NCBI GenBank assembly: GCA_963703015.1
Contig: OY969779.1
Coordinates: forward strand, 2,122,328 to 2,186,327
DNA: 64,000 nt
Direction: 5' to 3'
DNA from: an uncultured Methanobacteriaceae archaeon
Lineage (GTDB): Archaea; Methanobacteriota; Methanobacteria; Methanobacteriales; Methanobacteriaceae
Shown here: positions 6,552 to 23,509 of the stretch, piece after piece
Position numbering within the stretch: position 1 is the stretch's first letter
Layout: every line of letters begins with the position of its first letter
The notes under the pieces: model-generated
Told to the model about the DNA's origin: nothing
The model's input: the letters and a program-made list of their open reading frames with translations, nothing else
Database searches by the model: none
Program-made: the position numbers and the translations under genes

Positions 6552-7985
6552 TCATGTCATATTCACGTACAAATGTAGTGACCTGTAAACATTGGTTGTA
6601 TCTGGCAACTTATAGAGTAAGAACTGGATATTCTTGTAACCTGCTGAACTTGCAGTGAAACTGTAGGGTATTTGGGTTTGATTACCACTTGTTAGGGTTA
6701 TGTTCTGCTGACTCATCACAGTACCATTGGAACTTACTACCAATTCATAGTTAGTTGTCTGATACTCGTGGTTTACAACACCAATTATTACAGAACCATT
6801 TTGGCCAATTGTCAAGTTGGTTGGATAATTACTGGCATTACCATTGGGTCCTAAAATATAAAATTCTGTGAATGTTTCTCCTTGTTTGGGTTTTAAGACT
6901 ATGTAAACCGTTGTGGATATGGCCAATAAAACGGTTATAATTAATATGACTGAAAGAATTTTACTTGTTCTTGATTCACCTTTAAATTGTTCCTTAATTG
7001 AACTACCAAAACCACCAAAATTCACATAGAACTTTTCACCCTCAGGAACTCTTCTACGTCTGATAAACGCTATTAATAACATTATCAAAGTGAATGCTGA
7101 AAGAGATATAAGTATGGGGGTTAAACGAATTCCCCACGGGGTGTAGTTTAAAATTAATCCAATTAATGGTGTTACCGCAATGCTTAGACCAAAACTCAAT
7201 GCTAAACGTTCAATACCCTCCAAATCATCTTTTTTCGGAAACAACGCAGCAATTAACGAATATCCTGGTATAAATAATATGAGTAAAAGTCCAAGAATGG
7301 TTCTTACAGATGTATCATTCAACTTTGGGGTAACAATGAAAACAATTGTGAGGACAGTTGCTAATAATATTAACAATAAATCCTTTGAAACAAATTTAGG
7401 ATAAATATTTTTCGTTTTTTCTGTTTCCAAATCTGATTTTGGTTTATTTTTTTCTGAATTTTCTTTCCCTCTGTTTTTAGTTATAAACTGATCTTTGTTG
7501 CTATGTTCCTTAGATTCACCATATAACTCGGGTTTGATTGTATTTTTAACTTCATTCACTCTCGAATATACATATTTATTTTCATCACGGACTCTTCTCC
7601 TTCGAATAAGGGCAATGATTGTAAGAGTAATTGTAATCAATCCTAATAATTCTAAAATTAAGTTCAAATTGCTTTTTAGGAAATAATAATAAGTGTTCGG
7701 TATGAAATTTGATAAAACAAATACAATAGCAATACCTATCAATGGAAATCCAAAACTTAACGCTAACCTTTCAAAGAGATCTAGATCATTTTTTCGAGGA
7801 TATAAAACTGCAACCAATGAATATCCTGAAAGGAAAAGAATGAGTAAAATCAGTAGTACCGTCCTCAATGCATAATTCAATAAATTTGGGTATAAAATAG
7901 CCACAAATGCTGTCAATGTCATGATTAATATAATGACCAAATCTAAACTTTGAAACTTCATTTTCATTACAGAACACCATTTCAA
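6552..7985 (-). CDS. DUF1616-family membrane protein with a duplicated N-terminal TM module
   Basis: Two copies of GYSL.A.L.P.K.DL...ERLALSFG...IRRRRV, then FTEFYILG...A..YP and a soluble C-terminal domain. The start is probably a downstream ATG. Confidence 0.8.
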   Translation of the reverse strand: MKWCSVMKMKFQSLDLVIILIMTLTAFVAILYPNLLNYALRTVLLILLILFLSGYSLVAVLYPRKNDLDLFERLALSFGFPLIGIAIVFVLSNFIPNTYYYFLKSNLNLILELLGLITITLTIIALIRRRRVRDENKYVYSRVNEVKNTIKPELYGESKEHSNKDQFITKNRGKENSEKNKPKSDLETEKTKNIYPKFVSKDLLLILLATVLTIVFIVTPKLNDTSVRTILGLLLILFIPGYSLIAALFPKKDDLEGIERLALSFGLSIAVTPLIGLILNYTPWGIRLTPILISLSAFTLIMLLIAFIRRRRVPEGEKFYVNFGGFGSSIKEQFKGESRTSKILSVILIITVLLAISTTVYIVLKPKQGETFTEFYILGPNGNASNYPTNLTIGQNGSVIIGVVNHEYQTTNYELVVSSNGTVMSQQNITLTSGNQTQIPYSFTASSAGYKNIQFLLYKLPDTTNVYRSLHLYVNMT

Positions 7986-8213: not shown

Positions 8214-9140
8214 TTGAAAATTTATATTATTAACATGGGCTTTGATCATCGTGAAGATTTAAAGTATAACTATGAGGCGTTTGGGCTAAAAATTTCGTCT
8301 GAAATATATTTACCTGAATTATTACCTGTTCAGAAAACTAAATCTGATATCTCAATACATATTGGTGCAGTGGAACTTCCACTTATATCAATCCATGAGG
8401 GTATAAGCTTTAAAATAACAGAAAACGAAATTTATAGATTTTGGGATCATATTGGGAAATTCAAAATTACCGCGTATAGCATCTTGGTAGAACCTAATCT
8501 TTCTGTAGATCAAAATGTCCTTAAAAACTTTATATTGGGAACAGTATTTGCTACATTATTACGTTTAAGAGGAAATTTTGTGTTACATTCAAGTTGTGTA
8601 AATATCAATAATGCTGCGGTAGCGTTTTCTGGTTTTAAAGGTTATGGCAAATCTACTACAGCTATGGCTTTTTATTTAAGAGGATTTCCTTTAGTTGCTG
8701 ATGATTACATTGCAATAGAGTTTGATAAACACAACAACCCTCTTGTAATGCCGGGATTTCCTAGTTTAAGACTTTCATCAGATTCTAAACAAAATTTAGG
8801 TTTGTCATTAGATGATCATTTGGAAATGGAATTTTTGGAGAAACAATATGTATCAGCAAAAAAAAAATTTTCAAACAGAAAAATACCATTAAATAAAATA
8901 TATATCCTTGATAGGAAAGAAAAGCTGAATATAACTAAATTAAATCCACACGAATCATTCATAGAACTTGTTAAAAACACTTTTGGAATTTATACATTTT
9001 CTAAATCAGAACTTGCTGAAAACTTTTTTCAATGTGAAAACATTGTCAAAACAGTGAAAATTTCCAAGTTAGAAATTCCAGATTGTATTGAAAAAGTTCC
9101 AGAAACAATTCAAAGGATAAATAATGATATTACAAACTGA
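8214..9140 (+). CDS. HPr-kinase-like P-loop kinase (lasso-peptide-associated tailoring kinase)
   Basis: Motifs LHSSCV, Walker A GFKGYGKST and LVADD. It sits directly upstream of the PqqD and B2 genes. ATG 8235 is an alternative start. Confidence 0.8.
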   Translation: MKIYIINMGFDHREDLKYNYEAFGLKISSEIYLPELLPVQKTKSDISIHIGAVELPLISIHEGISFKITENEIYRFWDHIGKFKITAYSILVEPNLSVDQNVLKNFILGTVFATLLRLRGNFVLHSSCVNINNAAVAFSGFKGYGKSTTAMAFYLRGFPLVADDYIAIEFDKHNNPLVMPGFPSLRLSSDSKQNLGLSLDDHLEMEFLEKQYVSAKKKFSNRKIPLNKIYILDRKEKLNITKLNPHESFIELVKNTFGIYTFSKSELAENFFQCENIVKTVKISKLEIPDCIEKVPETIQRINNDITN

Positions 9141-9204
9141 TAAAATTATTCCACAAAAATTTGTAAATTCAAAAATATTTCTATAAATTATTTTTTCTAC
9201 TAGG

Positions 9205-9495
9205 GTGGTTATAATGAATGTGATTTCAGACAATACAATGGTTATGTTAAATGAAAATGTTGTTTCATGTGAACTTGATGGGGAAGTAGCAATATTAAAT
9301 ATGAATAATGGTGTTTACTATGGATTGAATCCAATAGGGGCCGTAATATGGGAATTAATAGAAAATTCTGTGAATGTAGCTCAAATCATAGCATTGGTAC
9401 TAACGGAGTATGATGTTGAAAAGGATCTTTGTCGTAGGGATATTTTTGAACTACTTGAAGAACTTTTAAAGAATGGATTGGTAAAGATCAAATGA
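9205..9495 (+). CDS. PqqD-family RiPP recognition element (lasso B1-type)
   Basis: 96 aa with ELDGEVAILN....YYGLNPIGAVIWELI...EYDV....C..D...LL..L...GLV. Overlaps the B2 start (ATGA). Confidence 0.9.
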   Translation: MVIMNVISDNTMVMLNENVVSCELDGEVAILNMNNGVYYGLNPIGAVIWELIENSVNVAQIIALVLTEYDVEKDLCRRDIFELLEELLKNGLVKIK

Positions 9496-9899
9496 CTTAC
9501 ATTCGAAATTTCTTTTATCTGAATAGTTCAGATAAACATTTGATATTAAAAACTTTTACCTACAGCTACATCATTCGAATATTAATGTGGTTTCTCCCCT
9601 TTCGATATATTCTAAAAATATCTGAATACATGGGACAAAAGAAAAAAATTAGCTCGGTAGTGAATATCAAAAAGATAATATGGGCTATAAACTGCACTGA
9701 TAATTTTGTATTAAAATCTACTTGTCTTACTAAAGCAATAACTGCTCAAATATTATTAAATCAAAATGATTATTTATCTATCGTGAAGATTGGAGTTTCT
9801 AAAAATACAAAATTTGAAGCTCATGCATGGGTTGAAGTTGATGGCCAAGTTGTATTGGGAAATTCAAAAAAGCAATTTGTATCTATAGTAGATTTATAA
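9492..9899 (+). CDS. Lasso peptide B2 leader peptidase (transglutaminase-like)
   Basis: 135 aa with the catalytic-type motifs STCLTKA and KIGV...FEAHAWVEVDGQVVLG. Translationally coupled to the PqqD gene. Confidence 0.88.
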   Translation: MTYIRNFFYLNSSDKHLILKTFTYSYIIRILMWFLPFRYILKISEYMGQKKKISSVVNIKKIIWAINCTDNFVLKSTCLTKAITAQILLNQNDYLSIVKIGVSKNTKFEAHAWVEVDGQVVLGNSKKQFVSIVDL

Positions 9900-10742
9900 G
9901 ATACTCCTCAAAAAATAGAAAAAAATAGTATCAATGTATTGCTCTTTTTCTTGGACATTTGCCATTAGTTTGAATGGTGAATAATTTTTTACTTGAACCG
10001 GTAATTTAAAAATAGCTTTTATAATGCTTAGATTTGTTTTTGTTGAGATTATGATTTTGTTTTTTGAATTTTTTATAGTTGATATTGTTCTATCTATGTT
10101 TCCTCCGATTTCAGTGTTTGTTGGTGGTGTTGTTTCTGTTGTGGTTGGTATTGTTCCGTCTATGTTTCCTCCGATTTCAGTGTTTGTTGGTGGTGTTGTT
10201 TCTGTTGTGGTTGGTATTGTTCCGTCTATGTTTCCTCCGATTTCAGTGTTTGTTGGTGGTGTTGTTTCTGTTGTGGTTGGTATTGTTCCGTCTATGTTTC
10301 CTCCGATTTCAGTGTTTGTTGGTGGTGTTGTTTCTGTTGTGGTTGGTATTGTTCCGTCTATGTTTCCTCCGATTTCAGTGTTTGTTGGTGGTGTTGTTTC
10401 TGTTGTGGTTGGTATTGTTCCGTCTATGTTTCCTCCGATTTCAGTGTTTGTTGGTGGTGTTGTTTCTGTTGTGGTTGGTATTGTTCCGTCTATGTTTCCT
10501 CCGATTTCAGTGTTTGTTGGTGTTGTTTCTGTTGTGGTTGGTATTGTTCCGTCTATGTTTCCTCCGATTTCAGTGTTTGTTGGTGGTGTTTCTGTTGTGG
10601 TTGGTATTGTTCCGTCTATGTTTCCTCCGATTTCAATAGGGTTTGTGGCTTCTGCAATGTCACAGGAAATGATAAGGGTCATACTTAAAAATAATATTGA
10701 GAATATAATTCCTTTGTAAATGTTAGCGTTGTCTTGTTTCAA
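9894..10742 (-). CDS. Secreted Thr/Pro-rich tandem-repeat protein
   Basis: Signal-peptide-like N-terminus, then repeats of TNTEIGGNIDGTIPTTTETTPP and a basic C-terminal tail. Upstream GGAGG RBS and TTG start. Confidence 0.7.
   Translation of the reverse strand: MKQDNANIYKGIIFSILFLSMTLIISCDIAEATNPIEIGGNIDGTIPTTTETPPTNTEIGGNIDGTIPTTTETTPTNTEIGGNIDGTIPTTTETTPPTNTEIGGNIDGTIPTTTETTPPTNTEIGGNIDGTIPTTTETTPPTNTEIGGNIDGTIPTTTETTPPTNTEIGGNIDGTIPTTTETTPPTNTEIGGNIDGTIPTTTETTPPTNTEIGGNIDRTISTIKNSKNKIIISTKTNLSIIKAIFKLPVQVKNYSPFKLMANVQEKEQYIDTIFFYFLRSIL
10091..10634. repeat. Coding tandem repeat: 66-bp unit, eight units (six of 66 bp, two of 63 bp) plus a partial ninth
   Basis: The motif tttcctccgatttc occurs 9 times at 66/63-bp spacing, with essentially identical units. 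Confidence 0.95.
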
Positions 10743-11045
10743 CTTATATCCTCCTATTTCTTCTTAATTTAACTACTGTATTTTACAAAGCCACAAACAT
10801 TAATATTTTTTCGATTTTTTCGTGATTTACGTCACAAAAATAATAGTAGTTTAGTACCTTAATAAATGTTTTTTTAGGCATTAAAGATGTTTTGGAAGAA
10901 ATAATAGTGATTATGTAAAAAATATTCAGTTTTAACAGTTTAAACGTTAATAATTGACTTTAAAAATAAAACATCACTATAATAATATGTTCATGAAAGT
11001 AAATATTTTAAGAAACTATCTAAAAAAGAAAAGAAAAGAAAGAAA

Positions 11046-14000
11046 TCAACTCACAGTTATACTAATCTGTGATGAATTACCACTACTTACAGGTTCGTAC
11101 TCATTTTCTGCGGTTTTTGTTGCATTTAATGTATAAGTGGTATGCCCGTATGATGTTTTAAGTAGTGTGAATGTTAATGTGGCAGTTTCATTTATGTTTA
11201 AATTTCCAATGTTCCAAATCCCTGTGGATGATGTATAGTTGCCTTTATTAGGTGTTGAGGATACAATTGTCAGTCCACTCGGTATTAAATCAGTTATTTG
11301 AACTCCTGTAGCGTTTTGTAATCCATTATTTGTAACATTGACTGTTACATTGAAGTTGGTGTTACGTTTTGGGCTAGTGGTGCTTGGTGTTTGAGTTACA
11401 GTAATAACAGGAGTAATTGTGTTTCCATTACTGTCGAACCATATTGTTTTATTGGATAATATATTGAGGTCTTGAGTTCCATTCCATAAAATTTTATATG
11501 TTGTTCCATTATCTCCTTTATTTATCCTGACAGTTGAATCGATATTTTCATCATTTTTCCATTGCATATTTCCATAAATAAACGCAAATTTACCGTCTTT
11601 TGTTATTATAACGCTGAAGGTATCTAATTGGGAGGGATTTGTGTTTTGTGTAAATGATGGTAAATGATCCCATGTAATTGTAATATTGTTGTCGTTAACG
11701 AGATATGTGATGTTTCCAAGATTAGTTACATCTAAATCTGCCCAGAATGGTGCTATATATGCTATACTGCTTGGGGGGGCTGCGTTGTAATATGGTCCGG
11801 GTACAGGTGAACCGAAAGATACCAATCCATTCACACTTATGTATACCGTAGTATAAGTTTGACCATAGAAAGTTACTGGAAATGGTAATGTAATTGCAGT
11901 AGTGGTTCCGTCATCACTATTTATTGTTCCGCTGGTTGTACCTTCGTTTGTGAATGAATTTGTTTTATTTATTATACCATTTAAGACAAGATTTACACTT
12001 TGAGCATCATTTTGGGTATTCCAATCAAATTCATTTTCCGCTGTTTTTGAAGCCGTGTTTACGAAGTTTCCAATGTTTATTACTTTAGCTATAATAGTTA
12101 ATGTGCCTGTATCTCCATTTAAGATGTTTTGAATGGTCCATATTCCATTACTAAATGTTCCATAGTTAGTATCGGATGAAACATACTGTAAACCAGCTGG
12201 CAATAAGTCAGTTATATTCACTCCTGTAGCAATATCTGGCCCATTATTGGTAGTGTTTATAATAATTGTAATTGTGTCACCAGTAGAAGGTTTAGTATTG
12301 TTTATTGTTTGTGTTACGGCGATGTCTGCTGCGTCTGGTATGTTTATGGTGTTTGTTTGTGCGTTGTTGTTGTAGTTCCAGTCTATGAAGTTGGGTGTTA
12401 GTGGTGCTGTGAGTGCTGCTGTGTTTGTTATTGTTCCTGTTGCCGTGATTTGTGCGTTTATTATTAGTGTTTGTGTTATGCCGTTGTTGAGGTTTCCAAT
12501 TGTCCACATTCCTGTGGTGGGGTTGTATGCTCCGTTGGAGTTGTCCGATATGTATGTTAGTCCGTTTGGCAGTAAATCTTTGATTGTTACTCCTGTGCTG
12601 TTGTCTGGTCCGTTGTTTTTTGCGGTAATGGTGATAGTGACGTTGTTATTGTATTTGGTTGTTCCTGTTATGGTTTGGTTTACCTGGATATCTCCACTGG
12701 GTCTTACTGTTGTTGTAGCATTTTGTGTTGGTTGTGTTGTGTAAATTGGTGATATTACTGTTGCATTGTTGGTTAAATTTGCTGTTTGAGTTCCTGTAGC
12801 CAACGATCTGAGGAACACATTCATAAATGCTGTTCCACCCGGTGTTGAATCAATTCCTTTTGGCATGTAAGGTATTGTCCAGAGTATTGCTGTTACTTTT
12901 CCATTACTATCTGTAATGAGTGTTGTATTCCCATTGCCCCTAGTATCACAACCAATGTACTGATAGCCATCTGCAATTATATATTTAACAACTACATTGG
13001 TTGCATCGTCATAGCTGTCTGTGCTGCCTTTGTTTCTTACATCTACTACGTAAGTTGGGGTATTACTTGCATCAAAAGATCCATTAGCTGATATTGCCCA
13101 TAGGTATTGTGTTACTGTTATGTTGGTTTGGGGTGTGTATGTTTTTCCGGGTGGTATTATTATGGTGGTTTGTGCGTTGTTGTTGTAGTTCCAGTCTATG
13201 AAGTTGGGTGTTAGTGGTGCTGTGAGTGCTGCTGTGTTTTTGATTATGTTTGTTGTTGTGATTTGGGCTGTGATTATTAGTGTTTGTGTTATGCCGTTGT
13301 TGAGGTTTCCGATGGTCCACATTCCTGTGGTGGGGTTGTATGCTCCGTTGGAGTTGTCTGATATGTATGTTAGTCCGTTTGGTAATAGGTCTTTGATTGT
13401 TACTCCAGTACTGTTGTCTGGGCCGTTGTTTTTTACGGTTATGTTGATTTTTACTTGGCTGTTAAGGTTGGTTGTTCCTGTTATGGTTTGGTTTACTTGG
13501 ATATCTCCGCTGGGTCTTACGATGATTGATGTGCTGGTTTGGTTGTTTGTGTTGTTTATGTCATCTTGGTCGACGCTTTTGAGTGTGGCAGTGTTGGTTA
13601 AGTTGGGTGTGTTAGTTCCTGTTGTTAGTGTTTTGAGGAATACATTCATGAATGCTGTTCCGCCAGGTGTTGATTCATATGCTTTTGGCATGTAGGGGAT
13701 TGTCCAAAGTATTGCTGTTACTTTTCCGTTACTGTCTTTTATGAGTGTTGTGTATCCGTTTCCTCTGGTGTCTGCTGCACTGTATTGGAATCCATTTCCT
13801 ATGTCGTATTCTATTACGACATTAGTAGCATCATCAAGTGTGCCCATATTTCTTACATCTACAACAAATGCTGGCACATTACTTGCATCAAAGGATCCTG
13901 CGGATGGTGTGAACCATAGGTATTGGTTGACTTTTATGTCTACAGCTTTTGGTACGTTTATACTTGTTTTTTGTGCGTTGTTATCTATTTGTGGGTCTGT

Positions 14001-14396
14001 TTCTGTTTGTGCTGTTTTGGTGGCGTTGTTTTTGATTATTCCGGTACTTGTTACGTTTGTTATTATGTTCAGTGTTTTTGCTACGCCGTCGTTGATTGTT
14101 CCAATTGTCCATATTCCGGTTGTGGGGTTGTATGCTCCGTTTGAATCGTCTGATATGTATGTTAAGCCTTTTGGTATTTTTGTAGTGATTTGAACGCCAG
14201 TTGCAGCGTCCGGTCCTTTATTTGTTACAGTTGTGGCGTATTTGATTGTTGATCCGTAATGTGGTGCTGTATTATTCACGGTTTGATTAACCTGAATGTC
14301 TGCACTAGCCGCACTAACTGCACCACTTAATAAAACTGCAAAAAATAAACTAAAAATCAAAAATATAAACTTGCTATCTATAAACTTCTTACTCAA
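11046..14396 (-). CDS. Adhesin-like surface protein: multiple DUF11 (Ig-like) domains, a NIDO-like domain and a terminal DUF11
   Basis: Signal peptide and repeated N.GPD.ATGV.I.D.LP.GL.Y...W.IG.L modules. LPFPVTFYGQTY...VNGLVSF...IAPFWADLD is the NIDO-like signature. Confidence 0.88.
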   Translation of the reverse strand: MSKKFIDSKFIFLIFSLFFAVLLSGAVSAASADIQVNQTVNNTAPHYGSTIKYATTVTNKGPDAATGVQITTKIPKGLTYISDDSNGAYNPTTGIWTIGTINDGVAKTLNIITNVTSTGIIKNNATKTAQTETDPQIDNNAQKTSINVPKAVDIKVNQYLWFTPSAGSFDASNVPAFVVDVRNMGTLDDATNVVIEYDIGNGFQYSAADTRGNGYTTLIKDSNGKVTAILWTIPYMPKAYESTPGGTAFMNVFLKTLTTGTNTPNLTNTATLKSVDQDDINNTNNQTSTSIIVRPSGDIQVNQTITGTTNLNSQVKINITVKNNGPDNSTGVTIKDLLPNGLTYISDNSNGAYNPTTGMWTIGNLNNGITQTLIITAQITTTNIIKNTAALTAPLTPNFIDWNYNNNAQTTIIIPPGKTYTPQTNITVTQYLWAISANGSFDASNTPTYVVDVRNKGSTDSYDDATNVVVKYIIADGYQYIGCDTRGNGNTTLITDSNGKVTAILWTIPYMPKGIDSTPGGTAFMNVFLRSLATGTQTANLTNNATVISPIYTTQPTQNATTTVRPSGDIQVNQTITGTTKYNNNVTITITAKNNGPDNSTGVTIKDLLPNGLTYISDNSNGAYNPTTGMWTIGNLNNGITQTLIINAQITATGTITNTAALTAPLTPNFIDWNYNNNAQTNTINIPDAADIAVTQTINNTKPSTGDTITIIINTTNNGPDIATGVNITDLLPAGLQYVSSDTNYGTFSNGIWTIQNILNGDTGTLTIIAKVINIGNFVNTASKTAENEFDWNTQNDAQSVNLVLNGIINKTNSFTNEGTTSGTINSDDGTTTAITLPFPVTFYGQTYTTVYISVNGLVSFGSPVPGPYYNAAPPSSIAYIAPFWADLDVTNLGNITYLVNDNNITITWDHLPSFTQNTNPSQLDTFSVIITKDGKFAFIYGNMQWKNDENIDSTVRINKGDNGTTYKILWNGTQDLNILSNKTIWFDSNGNTITPVITVTQTPSTTSPKRNTNFNVTVNVTNNGLQNATGVQITDLIPSGLTIVSSTPNKGNYTSSTGIWNIGNLNINETATLTFTLLKTSYGHTTYTLNATKTAENEYEPVSSGNSSQISITVS
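12296..14384. repeat. Copy 1 of a 2089-bp near-identical direct repeat (copy 2 at 15613..17701)
   Basis: Constant 3317-bp offset at both ends. Identical shadow ORFs occur at 12292/15609 and 13741/17058. Confidence 0.92.
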
Positions 14397-14746
14397 ACTT
14401 TCCCCCTCACCTTCATTCTTTTTAATATTTTATTTCGTTACAATCCCAAAAAAATCAATTTTTTATAGAAATTCTAGAGAATTTTCTATGTAATCGTTAA
14501 TACTAATACTTCTAAAATAATCTTTATAAATGTTTTGTTTATATTTTGATTTTTGTGATGATATGCACTTTATGGAAAATTAGTAGTGAATATAATCACA
14601 AACTCAAATCAAACTCAAATATTTCATGTGAAATTAACCTTCATAATTTTTAAATACAAAATTAAATTGTAATAATTTTCTAAAAAACAGATAATAGAAT
14701 CAAATATTGAATAAAATAAAAAAAAGGAAAAAAAACAAAGATAAAT

Positions 14747-17710
14747 TTAGAGGGGATTTGGAATTCCATTACTATCAAACCAAATATTTGAGGGTAATGA
14801 ACTCAAATCTTGAGTGCCATCCCAAAAATCATGGTAAGTACTGCTGTCGCCTTTATTTATCCTAGCATAGGTTAAATATTCATCATTCGTCCACTGAACA
14901 TCATTATAAATAAAAGCAAATTCACCATATGCATTCATTATTAAACTTACTGTATTCACAACGTCACTAGTACAGTTTGTATGGCAAGGTATACTGTCCC
15001 AAGTAATCATTGCCTGATCATCACTTACAGAATAACTAATATTACCCAAATAAGTTGTATCAAAATCTGCCCAAAATGGTGCTAAATATGCCACATTTGA
15101 TGGTGGTAATGTGCTGAACTGTCCTGTTACAGGAGCATTGAATGATACTAATCCATTAACATTTATATAGATGGTATTATAAGTTTGACCATATAAAGTT
15201 ACGTTGAAAGGTAATGTTATTTTACTTGTACTTCCATCATTATCATCAGTTGCGCCATCAGATGTTCCATCACTCGTGAAAGCCATTTTATTTATAGTTT
15301 CTAATATATTCAAACCATTACTAGTCACATCATTAGAGTTATTCCAATCATATTCATTATCACGAATTGTTATTGGATTTGTGAAACTGATAACATTCAC
15401 CAGTTTAGCTATCAATGTTAAAGTTGTGCTATCTCCATTTAGTAAGTCTTGAATGATCCACGTATTATCGTTGTATGTACCATAACTTGTTTCTGATGAT
15501 ATATATTGCAAGCCTTGAGGTAATAAATCAGATATATTTAGGTTTGTAGCAATGTCCGGGCCATTGTTAACTACATTCAAAACTATTTCAACATCTTCTG
15601 AATCGCCGTCAATATTGTTTATTGTTTGTGTTACGGCGATGTCTGCTGCGTCTGGTATGTTTATGGTGTTTGTTTGTGCGTTGTTGTTGTAGTTCCAGTC
15701 TATGAAGTTGGGTGTTAGTGGTGCTGTGAGTGCTGCTGTGTTTGTTATTGTTCCTGTTGCCGTGATTTGTGCGTTTATTATTAGTGTTTGTGTTATGCCG
15801 TTGTTGAGGTTTCCAATTGTCCACATTCCTGTGGTGGGGTTGTATGCTCCGTTGGAGTTGTCCGATATGTATGTTAGTCCGTTTGGCAGTAAATCTTTGA
15901 TTGTTACTCCTGTGCTGTTGTCTGGTCCGTTGTTTTTTGCGGTAATGGTGATAGTGACGTTGTTATTGTATTTGGTTGTTCCTGTTATGGTTTGGTTTAC
16001 CTGGATATCTCCACTGGGTCTTACTGTTGTTGTAGCATTTTGTGTTGGTTGTGTTGTGTAAATTGGTGATATTACTGTTGCATTGTTGGTTAAATTTGCT
16101 GTTTGAGTTCCTGTAGCCAACGATCTGAGGAACACATTCATAAATGCTGTTCCGCCAAGTGTTGATTCATATGCTTTTGGCATGTAAGGTATTGTCCAGA
16201 GTATTGCTGTTACTTTTCCATTACTATCTGTAATGAGTGTTGTATTCCCATTGCCCCTAGTATCACAACCAATGTATTGGAATTCGTTTCCAATATCGTA
16301 TTCTATTATTACATTGGTTGCATCGTCATAGTCGTCTGTGCTGCCTTTGTTTCTTACATCTACTACGTATGTTGGCGTATTACTTGCATCAAAAGATCCA
16401 TTTACTGTTGTGGTCCATAGGTATTGTGTTACTGTTATGTTGGTTTGGGGTGTGTATGTTTTTCCGGGTGGTATTATTATGGTGGTTTGTGCGTTGTTGT
16501 TGTAGTTCCAGTCTATGAAGTTGGGTGTTAGTGGTGCTGTGAGTGCTGCTGTGTTTTTGATTATGTTTGTTGTTGTGATTTGGGCTGTGATTATGAGTGT
16601 TTGTGTTATGCCGTTGTTGAGGTTTCCGATGGTCCATATTCCTGTGGTGGGGTTGTATGCTCCGTTGGAGTTGTCTGATATGTATGTTAGTCCGTTTGGT
16701 AATAGGTCTTTGATTGTTACTCCAGTACTGTTGTCTGGGCCGTTGTTTTTTATAGTTATGTTGATTTTTACTTGGCTGTTAAGGTTGGTTGTTCCTGTTA
16801 TGGTTTGGTTTACTTGGATATCTCCGCTGGGTCTTACGATGATTGATGTGCTGGTTTGGTTGTTTGTGTTGTTTATGTCATCTTGGTCGACGCTTTTGAG
16901 TGTGGCAGTGTTGGTTAAGTTGGGTGTGTTAGTTCCTGTTGTTAGTGTTTTGAGGAATACATTCATGAATGCTGTTCCGCCAGGTGTTGATTCATATGCT
17001 TTTGGCATGTAGGGGATTGTCCAAAGTATTGCTGTTACTTTTCCGTTACTGTCTTTTATGAGTGTTGTGTATCCGTTTCCTCTGGTGTCTGCTGCACTGT
17101 ATTGGAATCCATTTCCTATGTCGTATTCTATTACGACATTAGTAGCATCATCAAGTGTGCCCATATTTCTTACATCTACAACAAATGCTGGCACATTACT
17201 TGCATCAAAGGATCCTGCGGATGGTGTGAACCATAGGTATTGGTTGACTTTTATGTCTACAGCTTTTGGTACGTTTATACTTGTTTTTTGTGCGTTGTTA
17301 TCTATTTGTGGGTCTGTTTCTGTTTGTGCTGTTTTGGTGGCGTTGTTTTTGATTATTCCGGTACTTGTTACGTTTGTTATTATGTTCAGTGTTTTTGCTA
17401 CGCCGTCGTTGATTGTTCCAATTGTCCATATTCCGGTTGTGGGGTTGTATGCTCCGTTTGAATCGTCTGATATGTATGTTAAGCCTTTTGGTATTTTTGT
17501 AGTGATTTGAACGCCAGTTGCAGCGTCCGGTCCTTTATTTGTTACAGTTGTGGCGTATTTGATTGTTGATCCGTAATGTGGTGCTGTATTATTCACGGTT
17601 TGATTAACCTGAATGTCTGCACTAGCCGCACTAACTGCACCACTTAATAAAACTGCAAAAAATAAACTAAAAATCAAGAATATAAACTTGCTATCTATAA
17701 ATTTATTCAT
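14747..17710 (-). CDS. Paralogous DUF11 + NIDO-like adhesin (tandem duplicate)
   Basis: N-terminal ~690 aa nearly identical to 11046..14396, with a diverged NIDO-like C-terminus. Start moved to ATG 17710 (MNKFIDSK, GGGGGA RBS); the ORF track starts at 17827. Confidence 0.88.
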   Translation of the reverse strand: MNKFIDSKFIFLIFSLFFAVLLSGAVSAASADIQVNQTVNNTAPHYGSTIKYATTVTNKGPDAATGVQITTKIPKGLTYISDDSNGAYNPTTGIWTIGTINDGVAKTLNIITNVTSTGIIKNNATKTAQTETDPQIDNNAQKTSINVPKAVDIKVNQYLWFTPSAGSFDASNVPAFVVDVRNMGTLDDATNVVIEYDIGNGFQYSAADTRGNGYTTLIKDSNGKVTAILWTIPYMPKAYESTPGGTAFMNVFLKTLTTGTNTPNLTNTATLKSVDQDDINNTNNQTSTSIIVRPSGDIQVNQTITGTTNLNSQVKINITIKNNGPDNSTGVTIKDLLPNGLTYISDNSNGAYNPTTGIWTIGNLNNGITQTLIITAQITTTNIIKNTAALTAPLTPNFIDWNYNNNAQTTIIIPPGKTYTPQTNITVTQYLWTTTVNGSFDASNTPTYVVDVRNKGSTDDYDDATNVIIEYDIGNEFQYIGCDTRGNGNTTLITDSNGKVTAILWTIPYMPKAYESTLGGTAFMNVFLRSLATGTQTANLTNNATVISPIYTTQPTQNATTTVRPSGDIQVNQTITGTTKYNNNVTITITAKNNGPDNSTGVTIKDLLPNGLTYISDNSNGAYNPTTGMWTIGNLNNGITQTLIINAQITATGTITNTAALTAPLTPNFIDWNYNNNAQTNTINIPDAADIAVTQTINNIDGDSEDVEIVLNVVNNGPDIATNLNISDLLPQGLQYISSETSYGTYNDNTWIIQDLLNGDSTTLTLIAKLVNVISFTNPITIRDNEYDWNNSNDVTSNGLNILETINKMAFTSDGTSDGATDDNDGSTSKITLPFNVTLYGQTYNTIYINVNGLVSFNAPVTGQFSTLPPSNVAYLAPFWADFDTTYLGNISYSVSDDQAMITWDSIPCHTNCTSDVVNTVSLIMNAYGEFAFIYNDVQWTNDEYLTYARINKGDSSTYHDFWDGTQDLSSLPSNIWFDSNGIPNPL
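15613..17701. repeat. Copy 2 of the 2089-bp direct repeat
   Basis: Matches 12296..14384 apart from a few substitutions and one divergent patch (16154..16415). Confidence 0.92.
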
Positions 17711-17830
17711 TATTAGTTCCCCCAAAACACTAACATATTCCGCAAAATTATTATTATCTATGAATTGGTAGCAAATATAAATATATAAAATTATGTATAA
17801 TCCAGAAATAAGCTTATGTTTATACAATTA

Positions 17831-17860
17831 TTTATAAATTCAATTAATATTTTTAGGAGA
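17831..17860 (+). promoter_or_regulatory. Candidate TATA box (TTTATAAA) and RBS (AGGAGA) for the cyclase-precursor block
   Basis: TTTATAAA at 17831-17838 and AGGAGA at 17855-17860, upstream of ATG 17871. The region is AT-rich, so specificity is weak. Confidence 0.35.
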
Positions 17861-17870
17861 ATATACGGTT

Positions 17871-19760
17871 ATGGGTGCAATAGTAGGAATTTTTAATCGT
17901 AATGGACACGAAGTAGATATAAATCACATTAAACGTATGAATAATTGTATTTCATATATTGGGAAGGATGGATCTGCAATTTTAAATAAAGGATCTATAG
18001 CATTTGGTCACCAAATGCTTCACACTACTAAAGAATCAATGAGTGAGAATCTTCCATTCTATGACAAAAGTTCAAGATTAATAATTACAGCGGATGCAAG
18101 GATAGATAATAGGGATGAACTTTCAAAGCATTTAAACATTGAAAACAATTATAAAGTGTCTGATAGTTTTTACATTCTCAAATCTTATCAAAAATGGGGA
18201 GAAAATTGTACCGATAAAATTATTGGGGATTTTGCTTTTGCTATATGGGATATAAATAATGATCAACTGTTTTGTGCAAGGGATCATGTTGGAGTAAAAC
18301 CATTTTATTATTACGTGGATGAAAAAATATTTTTATTTTCAACAGAAATAAAATCATTAATAACAAATCCGCTAGTAAATTATTCTTTAAATGAAAAAAA
18401 AGCGGCATATTATTTGTTAGGTTCCTATGATGACAGGGAAATAACATTTTATAACAATATTTCTCGTTTACCTGCAGCTAACAGATTAATAGTCACTGAT
18501 GATACGTTTGAATTGATTAAATATTGGAGTTTAGATTATAATAAAAAAATTAATTTAGATTCAGAAAATGAATACTTTACCAGTTTTCGAAAAATTTTTA
18601 ATAATGCTGTTAAAGTTCGCTTAAGAAGTGCTTTTCCAGTAGGGGCTATGCTTAGTGGGGGATTGGATTCTTCATCCATTGTTTGCACTGCTCGTAATAT
18701 GTTAATGAAAAACAACAATAGTTATCCATTAAAAACTTTTTCATTAATTTTTGATAACACTCCTGAAGGTGATGAAAGAGAATTTATAAATCATGTAATT
18801 AAAAAAGGATTTATTCAACCTATTTTTATTAATGCGGATAATTATAGCCCTGTATTTGATAATAATCCTATTTTGTGGAATAATGATGAACCAAATAGGG
18901 CATTTAACTTATATTATGATTATTTATTAGATGAAGCTGCAAACAAAAATTCTATAAGAATTTTACTTGATGGATTGGGTGGAGATTCAACAGTTTCACA
19001 TGGAAAGGGATTAGTAGTAGACTACTTAAATAATAATAATTTTAAAAAAGCATTTAATGAAATTAACTGCACATCAAAACGTTTACAACAAAACAAGACT
19101 AAATTATTTGTAAATGAACTTATACTTACTTGTCCAGATTCCTTTTTAATTAAATTTCTGAATAACAATATATTGAAAAATAATAGAAATATATTAAACC
19201 ACGATTTTCAAGAATATATCAACGAACATTATGAATTATTATCTAAAAATAAAATAGTGAATCTCTCAGATAAAGCTAAAGAATATCATTTTAACATGCT
19301 AAATTCTGGTTTGATTCAGCATACATTTGAAGAAATAAACAAAATAACGACCTATTTTAATGTTGAGCAGCGTTATCCATTTTATGATGTCAATTTGTTG
19401 GAATTTTGTTTGGCTGTTCCATCAGAAATAAAACGTAAATATGGATGGGATCGGTTTTTGATGAGACAAGCCATGAATGAAGTTTTGCCTAAAGAAATTC
19501 AATGGCGCGAAAATAAAAAAACAGGAATTAATAGCAACATTAAAAATTTTATATCTCATGATTCAAAATTTATTGACGCTGTGTTAAATGATAATGAAAT
19601 TATTCAAAAATATGTTGATATAGATTTACTTCAAAAACTTTGGGAGGATGTAAAGAAGAATCAAAGACCAAAGGAATTTTTTTTATTGTGGAATGGTATT
19701 TCCTTAGCTTTATGGTTGAACCAATCCAATTTAAATAGTAAAAAATTTAATATATCTTAA
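17871..19760 (+). CDS. Lasso cyclase (asparagine-synthetase-like macrolactam synthetase)
   Basis: AsnB fold: ADARIDNR, GDFAFAIWD, ARDHVGVKPFYY, ATP motif LSGGLDSS, LDGLGGD and RYPFYD. It begins MGAIVG, lacking the glutaminase Cys of AsnB (MCGI). The precursor gene is 32 nt downstream. Confidence 0.85.
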   Translation: MGAIVGIFNRNGHEVDINHIKRMNNCISYIGKDGSAILNKGSIAFGHQMLHTTKESMSENLPFYDKSSRLIITADARIDNRDELSKHLNIENNYKVSDSFYILKSYQKWGENCTDKIIGDFAFAIWDINNDQLFCARDHVGVKPFYYYVDEKIFLFSTEIKSLITNPLVNYSLNEKKAAYYLLGSYDDREITFYNNISRLPAANRLIVTDDTFELIKYWSLDYNKKINLDSENEYFTSFRKIFNNAVKVRLRSAFPVGAMLSGGLDSSSIVCTARNMLMKNNNSYPLKTFSLIFDNTPEGDEREFINHVIKKGFIQPIFINADNYSPVFDNNPILWNNDEPNRAFNLYYDYLLDEAANKNSIRILLDGLGGDSTVSHGKGLVVDYLNNNNFKKAFNEINCTSKRLQQNKTKLFVNELILTCPDSFLIKFLNNNILKNNRNILNHDFQEYINEHYELLSKNKIVNLSDKAKEYHFNMLNSGLIQHTFEEINKITTYFNVEQRYPFYDVNLLEFCLAVPSEIKRKYGWDRFLMRQAMNEVLPKEIQWRENKKTGINSNIKNFISHDSKFIDAVLNDNEIIQKYVDIDLLQKLWEDVKKNQRPKEFFLLWNGISLALWLNQSNLNSKKFNIS

Positions 19761-19792
19761 AAAGATTAAAATATTAATTGGGGTATGGATAT

Positions 19793-19918
19793 ATGCCAAA
19801 GAAAACTGAAAAAAAACAAGTATACAATAAACCTATATTAAAAAAATATGGAGATATCACTAAACTCACATTAGGACCTGATGGATTCGGTGGAGATAAA
19901 GATGGTGGTAGTGGGTAA
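19793..19918 (+). CDS. Lasso peptide precursor (41 aa): leader MPKKTEKKQVYNKPILKKYGDITKLTL, core GPDGFGGDKDGGSG
   Basis: Hand translated; not in the ORF track. Has Y-x-x-P-x-L-x-x-x-G leader motif, Thr at -2, Gly at +1 and Asp at +8. GGGGT RBS upstream. Lies between the cyclase and the ABC transporter. Confidence 0.88.
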   Translation: MPKKTEKKQVYNKPILKKYGDITKLTLGPDGFGGDKDGGSG

Positions 19919-20055
19919 GAATAAAAAATTGTTTAAATACTTCACTTCGAAGTTTTTTGAATAGTAGATTCATACTCAATATACTAATAAAAATTTATTT
20001 TAATGGGCATCGCTTTATTGAATTATTTGTTCGTACTTATTTTTTATAAATTGAT

Positions 20056-21873
20056 TTGTTGGTGAAAATGATCATAAATACATTTAAAAAAAGTCTAATG
20101 AATCAATACTTAACTAATCTTATAAAATTATTGAAAAAAAAAGTTTCATATTCTCTAATTTTGATGGTTTTAATAAGTTTAACAGAGGGATTTAGTTTAA
20201 TATTGTTAATCCCTTTACTTCAACTGATTGGTATAGATATGGGCTCGGGATCTGTAAACCAAATCGGGGGATATATTTCTATTTTTTTTAATGCTCTTGG
20301 ATTGAAACCTTCCTTGATTTTAGTTCTTATCATATATGTTTTGGTGATAAGTGTAATAGCTATTTTAAATAGAATGCAAAACGTCATCACAGCAGATATT
20401 CAATATCAATTTGCAGCCGATATGCGAATCAATTTGTATAAATCTATTACAAATTCCAATTGGCTTTTCTTCTCAAGGATGAAATCATCTAACTTTGCAC
20501 ATGCCTTGACTAACGAAATAGAAAGGGTGAGCATTGGAACTGGACAGTTCTTAACTTTATTAGCAAGCATAATGATTTTGTTAGTGTATATTATTTTTGC
20601 ACTTAAACTAGCTGGTTTAATTACTGGAGTTATATTCATTGTGGGAGTAATAATTTTGCTAATATTGAGAAAAAAGATTAATAGTTCCAGAACTAAAGGT
20701 GAACATGTTACAACCACTACACAAGATTTATACTCGTCTATAATTCAGCAATTAAATGGCATGAAAACAATTAAGAGTTTTGGCATGGAAGAAGAAAATA
20801 TTAAAATATTTTCTAAACAAACTGATCAAGTAGCACAAACTTACCTTGATACGATTCAAAGTTATGCTGATGTAAAATTACTATTTGACGTTGGAACTGT
20901 GGTCATACTTTCTATTATTGTGTGGCTTTTGATTGAAGTTGTGAACATATCCACTGTAACCCTACTTATTTTAATTTATTTATTTGTGAGAATGATCCCA
21001 CAATTTTCAATAATACAAAGAAGTTATCAATATTTTATAAGCATCCTACCTGCATATAATAATGTAATAACTCTTGAAAAAGAGTGCATCGAAAAAACAG
21101 ATATTAAAGGGCAAGTTAACGACAAAATAAAGTTAAATAACTCAATAACTTTTAATAATGTTTCATTTTCATATTCTAAATCAAATTATTTTTCAATGGA
21201 AAATTTAAACCTTAAAATAAACGCAGGCAAAACAATAGCAATAGTGGGACCTTCTGGTTCTGGAAAAACAACAATTGCAGACATGATTATGGGACTCATT
21301 TTTCCTGAGGAAGGTGAGTTGAAAGTTGATGATCTTACTTTATCTCCAGAACTACTTAGAATCTGGAGAAATCAAATTGGATATGTATCTCAAGAAACTT
21401 TTCTATTTAATGAAAGTATAAGATCTAATCTGATTCTAGCAAATCCCAATGCTACGGATGAAGAGATAATAGAATCTTTAAAATTAGCATCTGCATACCG
21501 ATTTGTTAATAATCTACATGAAGGTTTAGAAACTAATATTGGTGATTTAGGAGTTAAATTATCTGGTGGAGAAAGACAAAGATTAGCATTAGCTCGTGCC
21601 TTACTCAGAAAACCATCTATTTTAATATTAGATGAAGCTACAAGTAACTTAGATTCAGAAAATGAGACAAAAATTATGGAATCACTTGATGAGATTCATG
21701 GTGACATTACAATATTAATAATAGCACACAGGTTGTCCACAATTAAAAATGCCGATTATGTCTACTTAATTGATAAGGGTCGTATTTTGGAATATGGGAC
21801 TAAGGAAAAACTATTAAAAAATGATGAAGGACAATTCAAGTCCATTTATAATTCACAAGGTTTGTATGAATAA
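20056..21873 (+). CDS. ABC exporter, fused TMD-NBD (lasso D-type)
   Basis: N-terminal TM helices, then GPSGSGKT, LSGGERQR, ILILDEATS and IAHRL. No C39 peptidase domain. Confidence 0.92.
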   Translation: MLVKMIINTFKKSLMNQYLTNLIKLLKKKVSYSLILMVLISLTEGFSLILLIPLLQLIGIDMGSGSVNQIGGYISIFFNALGLKPSLILVLIIYVLVISVIAILNRMQNVITADIQYQFAADMRINLYKSITNSNWLFFSRMKSSNFAHALTNEIERVSIGTGQFLTLLASIMILLVYIIFALKLAGLITGVIFIVGVIILLILRKKINSSRTKGEHVTTTTQDLYSSIIQQLNGMKTIKSFGMEEENIKIFSKQTDQVAQTYLDTIQSYADVKLLFDVGTVVILSIIVWLLIEVVNISTVTLLILIYLFVRMIPQFSIIQRSYQYFISILPAYNNVITLEKECIEKTDIKGQVNDKIKLNNSITFNNVSFSYSKSNYFSMENLNLKINAGKTIAIVGPSGSGKTTIADMIMGLIFPEEGELKVDDLTLSPELLRIWRNQIGYVSQETFLFNESIRSNLILANPNATDEEIIESLKLASAYRFVNNLHEGLETNIGDLGVKLSGGERQRLALARALLRKPSILILDEATSNLDSENETKIMESLDEIHGDITILIIAHRLSTIKNADYVYLIDKGRILEYGTKEKLLKNDEGQFKSIYNSQGLYE

Positions 21874-21895
21874 ATTTTGATTTAAATTATGAGAA

Positions 21896-22312
21896 TTATA
21901 TCAAGTTACCACTGGCATTGATTTTCAAATCATATTTAATTATATTATGGCTGGTGTCCGGAAAATCTATATAAATTCTTGAAACTCCTTTAGCCGGAAT
22001 TGAAGGCGGGGTTAGATGGGGAGTATCGTTGGTAGCAATAACGTTTCCTTGAGTATCATAGGCTGTTGCAATTATTTTTACATTTAAAGCATCATTCGAA
22101 TTGTTATTAACTAGATATCCTCTTATATAATAATATTCAACTCCGTCTGTTCCATTGTAAGTTCCGGATGTAGTATTGTTTGAAAGATAAATTGAATCTT
22201 CTGAAAAGATTTTTTCTCCAAAAGTTCCATTGGGTGCTGTTTTGGTGGTACAACCAGAAATAGCAACTGAAACAATTAGTAAAAGTGTTACACAGATAAA
22301 TTTTTTAAACAT
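21896..22312 (-). CDS. Small lipoprotein (FxLYD-like Ig domain)
   Basis: Lipobox-like ISGC and YIRGYLVN...NVKIIATAYD..GNVI...L.P..IPA. Confidence 0.65.
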   Translation of the reverse strand: MFKKFICVTLLLIVSVAISGCTTKTAPNGTFGEKIFSEDSIYLSNNTTSGTYNGTDGVEYYYIRGYLVNNNSNDALNVKIIATAYDTQGNVIATNDTPHLTPPSIPAKGVSRIYIDFPDTSHNIIKYDLKINASGNLI

Positions 22313-22335
22313 TTAAGCACCGTTATGAAGTTTAA

Positions 22336-22365
22336 TTGATTATGAATTCCTTGATTATGAATTCC
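22336..22365. repeat. Perfect 15-bp tandem duplication (TTGATTATGAATTCC x2) in a divergent intergenic region
   Basis: Read directly at 22336-22350 and 22351-22365. Confidence 0.9.
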
Positions 22366-22423
22366 AAATTTAATTAAATTATTGTTGGAAAGATATATTT
22401 AATTATATTTCATAATTATAAAA

Positions 22424-23509
22424 ATGTTATATTTAAATAATAATAACTGTTCTAATTTTACTAATGAAGAAGAACTTCTATTATTATGTGCAAGAGAACA
22501 AATTAATAAAGATCATAGAATTAAACTAAGAAATCTTTTGGAAAACGATATAAATTGGGATTATTTACTTAAATTGGCAGCAAAACACAAAATTAAACCC
22601 CTTGTTTATAGTAGCTTAAAAACATTGGATAAAAATAAGATTCCAAAAGAAGTTTTCATAGAATTAGAATCCCATTTTATTAGAAACTTACAAAAAAATT
22701 TGATGTATTTAGGACATTTATATAACATCTTAAAATTATTCCATAATAATAAAATCAAATCTATTCCGTATAAAGGGCCGGTTTTAGCTTTAAATGCCTA
22801 TGGAAATTTAGGATTACGCGAATTTGTGGATCTGGATATATTTGTTCAAAAAAAGGACATAGTGCGCGCAAAAAACGTTCTTGTTTCAAATGGGTACATT
22901 AGTTATATCAAAAATTCAGGGTTTAAAGAAAATATTTATTACCAATTTCATAGGGACATGTTATTTTTTGATAGCAAACGTAATGTAAATATTGAAATTC
23001 AATGGAATTTCATTGGACAGTCATTCACATACAATGGGAATGTATTCAAAAATCCTAAAAACATCCATTCTACAAAATTAAACAATAAAGAAATTTTTAG
23101 TCTTTCATCAGAAGACATGCTTTTAATTTTATGTATTCATGCTTCAGGCCATTTATGGGAACAGATATCTTGGATATGTGATATTGTTGTATTCATTAAT
23201 GTCAACAAGATAAACTGGACTAGTCTCATTAAAAAAAGTAAAATATTAGGTTTTAATCGAATATTAAATATAAACCTTCTCTTATCAATGGAATTGTTTG
23301 ATTTGAAAATTCCAAACGAATTTTCAGAATTAATATCCAATGATGAATACTCTAAAAAATTGGTCTCAGATATTATAAAAATCCTTTTTCAAAGTGAAAG
23401 CTCAGGAAGAAGAAATTTTTACCTTTTTAAGATGCGTTACAAACTTAGGGAGAATCCCGTTCAAGGATTTAAAGATTTTATCAAAATAATAGTTTCAAAC
23501 TTGATATAG
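22424..23509 (+). CDS. Nucleotidyltransferase family protein (NTP_transf_5-like, lasso-cluster type)
   Basis: Motifs YKGPVLA..AYG..GLREFVDLDIFV, IEIQWN and EDMLLILCIHASGH.W...W.CD. Confidence 0.82.
   Translation: MLYLNNNNCSNFTNEEELLLLCAREQINKDHRIKLRNLLENDINWDYLLKLAAKHKIKPLVYSSLKTLDKNKIPKEVFIELESHFIRNLQKNLMYLGHLYNILKLFHNNKIKSIPYKGPVLALNAYGNLGLREFVDLDIFVQKKDIVRAKNVLVSNGYISYIKNSGFKENIYYQFHRDMLFFDSKRNVNIEIQWNFIGQSFTYNGNVFKNPKNIHSTKLNNKEIFSLSSEDMLLILCIHASGHLWEQISWICDIVVFINVNKINWTSLIKKSKILGFNRILNINLLLSMELFDLKIPNEFSELISNDEYSKKLVSDIIKILFQSESSGRRNFYLFKMRYKLRENPVQGFKDFIKIIVSNLI

Follow-up and report, generated by a model that had tools for sequence, protein, structure and literature searches.

The 64,000-nucleotide stretch of DNA analysed here (hereafter referred to as the window) corresponds to positions 2122328-2186327 of the complete 2.72-Mb genome (34.8% GC) of a Methanobacterium-like archaeon. 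Judging from its sequence, it very probably carries an intact and selectively maintained gene cluster for a lasso-type ribosomal peptide, of the subtype with both a kinase and a nucleotidyltransferase. Genes were assigned on the basis of the listing of open reading frames (ORFs) and scans of the window ORFs with the hidden Markov models (HMMs) of Pfam and NCBIfam. All seven lasso-type genes (hereafter referred to as K, B1, B2, C, A, D and N) were present, with intact ORFs, as follows:

8214..9140, plus strand: HprK-like tailoring kinase (K); PF07475 28.3 bits, TIGR04355 33 bits
9205..9495, plus strand: B1, PqqD-like leader-recognition element (RRE); PF05402 64 bits
9492..9899, plus strand: B2, transglutaminase-like leader peptidase; PF13471 59 bits, NF033537 73.8 bits
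17871..19760, plus strand: lasso cyclase (C), asparagine synthetase-like macrolactam synthetase; NF033535 644 bits
19793..19918, plus strand: precursor peptide (A), 41 amino acids; NF033521 20 bits
20056..21873, plus strand: ABC exporter (D), fused permease-ATPase; PF00664 and PF00005 only
22424..23509, plus strand: nucleotidyltransferase (N), PsmN-like by family; PF14907 187.5 bits

An earlier reading of the same DNA (hereafter referred to as the original prediction) had described each of these components as recognisable, and every one of them was recovered in its place and in the expected family. The HMM searches it had proposed gave scores of 64 (PF05402), 59 (PF13471) and 187.5 bits (PF14907), and identified an Asn_synthase domain in the cyclase. 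Its functional proposal, an archaeal lasso-type pathway, is supported by the cyclase family, the conserved motifs and the completeness of the gene set.

The seven genes are not contiguous. Three minus-strand genes, one for a repeat protein and two for DUF11 proteins, separate B2 from the cyclase gene, and a minus-strand lipoprotein gene separates the exporter gene from the nucleotidyltransferase gene. The resulting order (K-B1-B2, then DUF11, then C-A-D-N) is a minority layout among the loci of the family. It is shared by L003, the cyclase of which is 57% identical to that of the window, and the split is thus inherited and does not result from a recent disruption. No Rfam family was matched in a scan of the whole window, and a scan for promoters and terminators between positions 7900 and 23700 gave counts no higher than those for shuffled controls, with a bacterial-type model that is wrong for an archaeal host.

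Cyclase, processing enzymes and precursor

The cyclase provided the strongest evidence of any single gene: it clearly exceeded the cut-off (525 bits) of NF033535, the NCBIfam model for the "lasso peptide isopeptide bond-forming cyclase", whereas its score for the AsnB equivalog TIGR01536 (253 bits) was below the cut-off of 267. The protein has GATase_7 and Asn_synthase domains and the motif SGGLDSS. Its N-terminus (MGAIVG) has a glycine (Gly2) at the position at which the glutaminase has a cysteine, as the original prediction had noted; the genome's own AsnB paralogue begins with MCAIAG. All the aligned lasso cyclases contained SGG[LMI]DS, with Ser or Gly replacing Cys2. In the maximum likelihood tree, all the Methanobacteriaceae cyclases branched together with four bacterial cyclases from lasso contexts (cyanobacterium L002, planctomycete L004, a second cyanobacterium, L005, and Hyphomicrobiales L008), in a clade with 100/100 support. 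This clade was set apart from the AsnB paralogue of the genome and from the AsnB-like proteins L007, L009 and L010, which have no lasso context. The protein thus groups with lasso-context cyclases, rather than with AsnB or AsnB-like proteins from glycan contexts; the placement that the original prediction had named as grounds for its own rejection was not observed. The nearest bacterial cyclases found were those of a cyanobacterium (39% identity) and a planctomycete (34%), not of Firmicutes. A sequence search of the PDB with the cyclase yielded AsnB-type enzymes only and no lasso cyclase.

The proteins predicted to process the leader and to tailor the peptide also carry the expected signatures. 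The first 4 nucleotides of B2 are also the last 4 of B1. B1 scored well above the cut-off of PF05402 (23.4 bits) and had its best score with the Bacillus-type lasso PqqD model. B2 exceeded the cut-off of NF033537 (33 bits), and the Cys/His motifs attributed to it were borne out by Cys78 and His111, both of which were invariant in 13 sequences. The true start codon of the kinase gene is likely to be the ATG at position 8235. The kinase is 27-29% identical (29-31% in tblastn) to kinases encoded next to bacterial lasso cyclases, and residues His118, Lys139 (P-loop), Asp156 and Asp157 were invariant or near-invariant in 13 archaeal and bacterial lasso-linked kinases; this His-Lys-Asp-Asp combination is the motif of lasso-tailoring kinases (PMC9266682). 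The exporter, 48-65% identical to the exporters of related lasso loci, contains only ABC_membrane and ABC_tran domains, with no C39 peptidase domain in the Pfam scan, consistent with the description of this protein in the original prediction. The nucleotidyltransferase score for PF14907 was far above the cut-off (31.2 bits).

The precursor consists of a 27-residue leader, MPKKTEKKQVYNKPILKKYGDITKLTL, followed by a 14-residue core, GPDGFGGDKDGGSG. It scored just above the cut-off (19 bits) of the lasso leader model NF033521, and its leader is canonical, as predicted, with YNKPIL (Y-x-x-P-x-L), a glycine and Thr(-2), whereas the core provides Gly1 and Asp8. We compared this precursor with 30 others from related loci, identified by a motif search and from intergenic regions, counting core positions with the cleavage site placed after Thr(-2)-x. 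An acidic residue (Asp or Glu) was present at core position 7-9 in all 31 precursors, and at position 8 in 24 of them; position 1 was Gly or Ala in 24. In L058, the closest relative, whose cyclase is 85% identical to that of the window, the core is GPNGFGGDKDSGSG, in which Gly1, Asp8 and Ser13 are kept but Asp3 is replaced by Asn, ruling out Asp3 as the ring residue. Gly1, Asp8 and the penultimate Ser are retained in the orthologues from L058, L003 and L059. Ser13 is the only Ser, Thr or Tyr of the window core, and the cores of the window's subclade end in SG, SG, SG and SE, such that the Ser is penultimate rather than C-terminal. Across the family, only 12 of the 31 cores end in Ser, and 21 have a Ser as the last or penultimate residue. 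By analogy, the product would be a Gly1-Asp8 macrolactam with an eight-residue ring and the six-residue tail KDGGSG (calculated [M+H]+ of the lactam, 1204.49, versus 1222.50 for the linear core), probably phosphorylated and probably also glycosylated on Ser13. Phosphorylation would add mass in steps of 79.97, and one phosphate plus one hexose would give an [M+H]+ of 1446.51.

A separate precursor subtype was observed in L049, L050, L051 and L054 (genus group g13), with a leader of the form ...KP.L.THD.V..LT. and a core that begins AVSVGSAD... and has Tyr, Phe or Ser as its last residue. Two kinase paralogues are present in each of the four loci, and B1 is located apart from B2.

The ratio of nonsynonymous to synonymous substitution rates (dN/dS), relative to L058, was 0.19 for C, 0.12 for A, 0.13 for D, 0.29 for the lipoprotein gene and 0.26 for N. 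The gene set is real and under purifying selection.

Proposed pathway and alternative explanations

What the sequence shows is the identity of the genes, the conservation of their motifs and purifying selection; each chemical step is proposed by analogy. The 41-residue precursor would be made first, and the HprK-like kinase would then phosphorylate Ser13 on the linear precursor, the form on which PadeK acts (PMC9266682). B1 would bind the YNKPIL...G...T leader and present the precursor to B2, which would cleave it after Thr(-2)-Leu(-1). The cyclase would use ATP to activate the side chain of Asp8 and link it to the amine of Gly1, leaving KDGGSG as the tail of the eight-residue ring. Modification of the phospho-Ser with a hexose (or a nucleotide-linked group) would be the task of the PF14907 enzyme, and the ABC pump would export the product. 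In the pseudomycoidin system, the addition of a hexose to the phosphate depends on PsmN, and this sugar may hold the thread in place (PMC6993621). A phospho-glycosyl group might keep the tail threaded in the same way here, and is the likely plug, because the tail has no bulky residue.

Several observations weigh against this interpretation. The HPr_kinase_C score of the kinase (PF07475) is below the cut-off of 33.3 bits, B1 scored slightly under the cut-off of the Bacillus-type lasso PqqD model NF033536 (76 versus 80 bits), and the third catalytic residue of B2 could not be aligned with confidence. The Ser of the window core is penultimate, whereas the Ser targeted by the characterised kinases is C-terminal and has been described as "extremely conserved" in kinase-type precursors (PMC9266682). 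A 14-residue core with a Gly-rich tail of six residues may not hold the thread. The biosynthetic blocks are parted by 8 kb of opposite-strand genes and may therefore not be co-regulated. Finally, the lasso cyclase gene has internal stops or is fragmented in G193, G166, G218, G116, G199, G098 and G087, and the presence of cyclase pseudogenes in several genomes of the same genus indicates that the lasso trait is dispensable.

Alternative explanations were also considered. The AsnB-like gene could encode a glutamine-dependent asparagine synthetase or a glycan amidotransferase, the other genes being chance neighbours, as its GATase_7 and Asn_synthase domains and the glycan genes nearby might lead one to expect. 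The sequence effectively refutes this explanation, given the absence of Cys2, the scores falling under the cut-off for TIGR01536 and well over that for NF033535, and the position of the protein among lasso cyclases in the tree. Moreover, the AsnB-like paralogues L063-L066, which served as a negative control and lie among glycosyltransferase and epimerase genes, are only 24-27% identical to the cyclase and are not accompanied by B1, B2, K or A. A different possibility, which we consider real but on balance rather unlikely, is that the Gly1-Asp8 macrolactam is a branched-cyclic, unthreaded product and not a true lasso. The lack of a bulky plug residue in KDGGSG and the length of just 14 residues of 10 of the 31 family cores would fit such a product, but phospho-glycosylation of Ser13 could provide a plug (PMC6993621), and solved lasso structures, which span 14-33 residues, extend down to precisely this length (PMC12214591).

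The split of the cluster by 8 kb of opposite-strand genes, the cyclase pseudogenes of the relatives G193, G166, G218, G116 and G199, and the failure to detect native pseudomycoidin in its own producer might together point to a cryptic or decaying cluster, in which the insertion and duplication of surface genes would have disconnected K-B1-B2 from C-A-D-N and production of the mature peptide would have ceased. This explanation appears improbable, because the seven ORFs are intact, dN/dS is 0.12-0.29 for the genes compared with L058, the split is kept at 57% cyclase identity and splitting is the rule across the family, and the cyclase gene has its own AGGAG, 10 nucleotides 5' of the ATG, with a TATA-like box farther upstream. 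We also give little credence to the idea that the kinase and the nucleotidyltransferase act on neighbouring surface proteins or glycans, leaving the peptide as an unmodified macrolactam. The canonical C-terminal Ser is indeed missing from the core, glycan genes follow the nucleotidyltransferase gene on the same strand, and the related LppN is inactive without an unknown partner, which Popov et al. suggested to be encoded outside the core cluster (PMC13381572). However, homologues of K and N accompany the lasso cyclases of the cyanobacterial locus L002 and the planctomycete locus L004, neither of which has DUF11 or glycan genes, and 21 of the 31 precursors keep a Ser in the last or penultimate position. 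A tailored lasso-type peptide is the preferred interpretation.

Distribution and genomic surroundings

The cyclase family is not confined to the window. Scores above the NF033535 cut-off were obtained for 51 of 301 Methanobacteriaceae species genomes (about one sixth), and matches at E≤1e-30 for 71 genomes from 13 of the 27 genera of this family; the other families of the phylum that were sampled gave no match. The best 120 database homologues of the cyclase were 41-85% identical to it, and all those with an organism name were from Methanobacterium or Methanobacteriaceae. Many of these homologues, among them the cyclases of M. formicicum, M. spitsbergense and several Methanobacterium sp., already bear the NCBI name "lasso peptide isopeptide bond-forming cyclase". 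The window's genome falls in the same genus-level group as G075, the cyclase of which is labelled Methanobacterium spitsbergense by NCBI. A claim of exceptional rarity or novelty is not, therefore, supported. The statement in the original prediction that no characterised archaeal product was known agrees with our literature search (archaeal lasso peptides, and lasso peptides with Methanobacterium or with DUF11), in which neither an archaeal lasso product nor a description of these loci was found. A passage of a 2020 paper (PMC7533575) cites Tietz et al. 2017 for the Euryarchaeota as an under-explored source of lasso peptides. The DUF11 neighbour, the exporter-linked lipoprotein and the very short cores with a penultimate Ser look new.

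The lasso trait is repeatedly lost within the family. The cyclase tree was discordant with genus labels, suggesting exchange within the family or the persistence of old allelic lineages. In the comparison with L058 (17871-23509), the synonymous divergence (dS) of the lasso genes was 0.31-0.47, versus 1.09 for the adjacent epimerase gene. The GC content of the lasso enzyme genes (26-29%) is 6-8 points under the genome mean, and that of the embedded DUF11 genes is 37-38%. The low dS and low GC content of the lasso genes may mean that lineages exchanged the lasso block more recently. One contig labelled Nitrososphaerales (L001; CAWIYT010000353.1) carries DUF11, cyclase, kinase and DUF1616 genes, and its cyclase is the sister (100/99) of that of a Methanobacteriaceae genome; this contig is probably a mis-binned Methanobacteriaceae contig.

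The other genes in and beside the cluster are as follows:

6552..7985, minus strand: DUF1616 multi-pass membrane protein, flanking gene divergent from the kinase gene; PF07760 368 bits
9894..10742, minus strand: Thr/Pro-rich repeat-protein ORF; no family match
11046..14396, minus strand: DUF11-repeat secreted surface protein, copy a; PF01345 454 bits
14747..17827, minus strand: DUF11-repeat surface protein, copy b; PF01345 352 bits
21896..22312, minus strand: small lipoprotein, 138 amino acids; NF038353 (FxLYD) 23.2 bits

We surveyed the neighbourhoods of 32 true lasso loci from related Methanobacteriaceae genomes. A gene for a large DUF11-repeat surface protein was located inside or immediately beside the lasso genes in 30 of these loci, the two compact loci L067 and L068 being those without one. 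At least 20 loci have the precursor gene 50-270 nucleotides downstream of the DUF11 gene, on the same strand, often with a kinase gene next, and this arrangement persists even though K, B1, B2, C and D otherwise occur in varying orders. There are only about 16 DUF11 genes in the window's genome, and the best match in that genome for lasso-linked DUF11 proteins was the window's pair in 13 of 23 cases. Copy a (1116 residues) has seven DUF11 domains, a NIDO-like region and a signal-peptide-like N-terminus, and is 69% identical to the single DUF11 copy of L003. The NIDO-like domain was considered as a hallmark of lasso-linked DUF11 proteins and rejected, as it was present in only one of 21, with the DUF11 repeat the sole shared element. 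Copies a and b are 98.2% identical over 2,090 nucleotides, with diverged ends, copy b lacking the last DUF11 domain; on this sequence evidence, they are the products of a recent tandem duplication. The start of copy b is likely to be near position 17710.

The lipoprotein gene lies just beyond the exporter gene, on the opposite strand, in most loci for which the exporter was captured. The protein scored marginally above the NF038353 cut-off (23 bits), and its ISGC lipobox-like motif was invariant in the alignment. Its fold was modelled as an Ig-like beta-sandwich (pLDDT 80), with weak, generic matches (TM about 0.45-0.5) to DUF1425, IrmA and a Wzt carbohydrate-binding domain. The protein is a candidate for a role in immunity or as an accessory factor in export. 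Epimerase (PF01370) and glycosyltransferase (GT1) genes follow the nucleotidyltransferase gene on the same strand, as they do in L058, L059 and L003. The repeat ORF (9894-10742) comprises about eight 66-nucleotide tandem repeats, encoding ...TNTEIGGNIDGTIPTTTETTPP... units behind a hydrophobic N-terminus. It matched no Pfam or NCBIfam family and had no homologue in the syntenic L003, and there is also an open frame on the other strand; we are unsure whether it is a real gene.

The genome has no full-length DUF1616 gene other than the one in the window. The gene adjoins the lasso genes in most related loci and is 20-85 kb away in several genera; it was present in 64 of the 66 family genomes with a lasso-cyclase match at E≤1e-60 and in 36 genomes without such a match. 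These distances and the cyclase-free genomes weaken the case for DUF1616 as a dedicated lasso partner. Its adjacency is probably a matter of regional synteny, with the gene not forming a core part of the cluster.

Popov et al. found both paeninodin-like lasso clusters and clusters for linear polyphosphorylated peptides (LPPs) embedded in the capsule loci of Bacilli (PMC13381572). The window cluster itself sits among genes for surface proteins, membrane proteins and glycan enzymes, and neither paeninodin nor pseudomycoidin has antibacterial activity. By analogy, these considerations make a role in the cell envelope more likely than an antibiotic function. A more specific coupling to the cell surface, in which the short, acidic, phospho-glycosylated peptide is made together with the DUF11 adhesin-like protein and acts on this protein or on an envelope glycan as a ligand, cap or Ca2+/metal cofactor, or signals the state of adhesion, and is not an antibiotic, is a speculative but testable proposal that we regard as unlikely. 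To our knowledge, no biological role has been established for lasso peptides of the kinase/nucleotidyltransferase type, and such a coupling, if true, would provide the first function for these peptides and the first archaeal lasso biology. The approximately 50 related loci in cultivable Methanobacterium species constitute a tractable set for studies of peptide function, and the very short cores could be used to probe the minimal size of a lasso and the use of a phospho-sugar as a plug.

Comparison with known systems

The original prediction had matched the window to the paeninodin/pseudomycoidin-type clusters of Firmicutes. This match holds for the gene set, but not for the position of the Ser, which is penultimate, or for the origin of the nearest bacterial cyclases, which are cyanobacterial and planctomycete. 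The LPP clusters of Bacillota (lppA-K-B-S-D-N; PMC13381572) share with the window a kinase, an RRE, an exporter, a nucleotidyltransferase and a setting among cell-envelope glycan genes. They have a SipW-like signal peptidase and neither a cyclase nor B2, whereas the window has a cyclase, B2 and a lasso-type leader, and no signal-peptidase family was matched by the cluster ORFs in the Pfam and NCBIfam scans. An LPP reading of the window is ruled out by the cyclase and B2 and by the absence of a SipW-like peptidase.

Paeninodin, from Paenibacillus dendritiformis (PadeK/ThcoK; PMC9266682), resembles the window system in the His-Lys-Asp-Asp kinase, the split B protein, the YxxPxL leader and the Thr at position -2. 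It differs in that its Ser is strictly C-terminal and in lacking a nucleotidyltransferase. The pseudomycoidin cluster of Bacillus pseudomycoides (psmC-A-K-B1-B2-N-D; PMC6993621) has the same seven types of gene as the window, the two being likened by family, and in both cases the tail has no good plug and a phospho-hexose is proposed as the lock. However, pseudomycoidin begins with Ala1 and has an expected [M+H]+ of 2618, whereas the window product, from an archaeal host, would have an [M+H]+ of about 1204, a 14-residue core, Gly1, an eight-residue ring and a penultimate Ser. Unlike those of the pseudomycoidin cluster, the window genes form two blocks split by DUF11 genes, with a lipoprotein gene adjoining the exporter gene.

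The uncharacterised Methanobacterium loci with NCBI lasso annotations (M. formicicum, M. spitsbergense, sp. BAmetb5 and sp. MZD130B) have the same cyclase family as the window (41-45% identity) and the same set of genes, and they too have a DUF11 neighbour and short cores rich in Gly. Relative to these loci, the window belongs to a divergent subclade, together with L058, L003 and L059, in which the precursor gene follows the cyclase gene, K-B1-B2 forms the first block and the core ends in SG or SE, with the DUF11 gene duplicated in the window.

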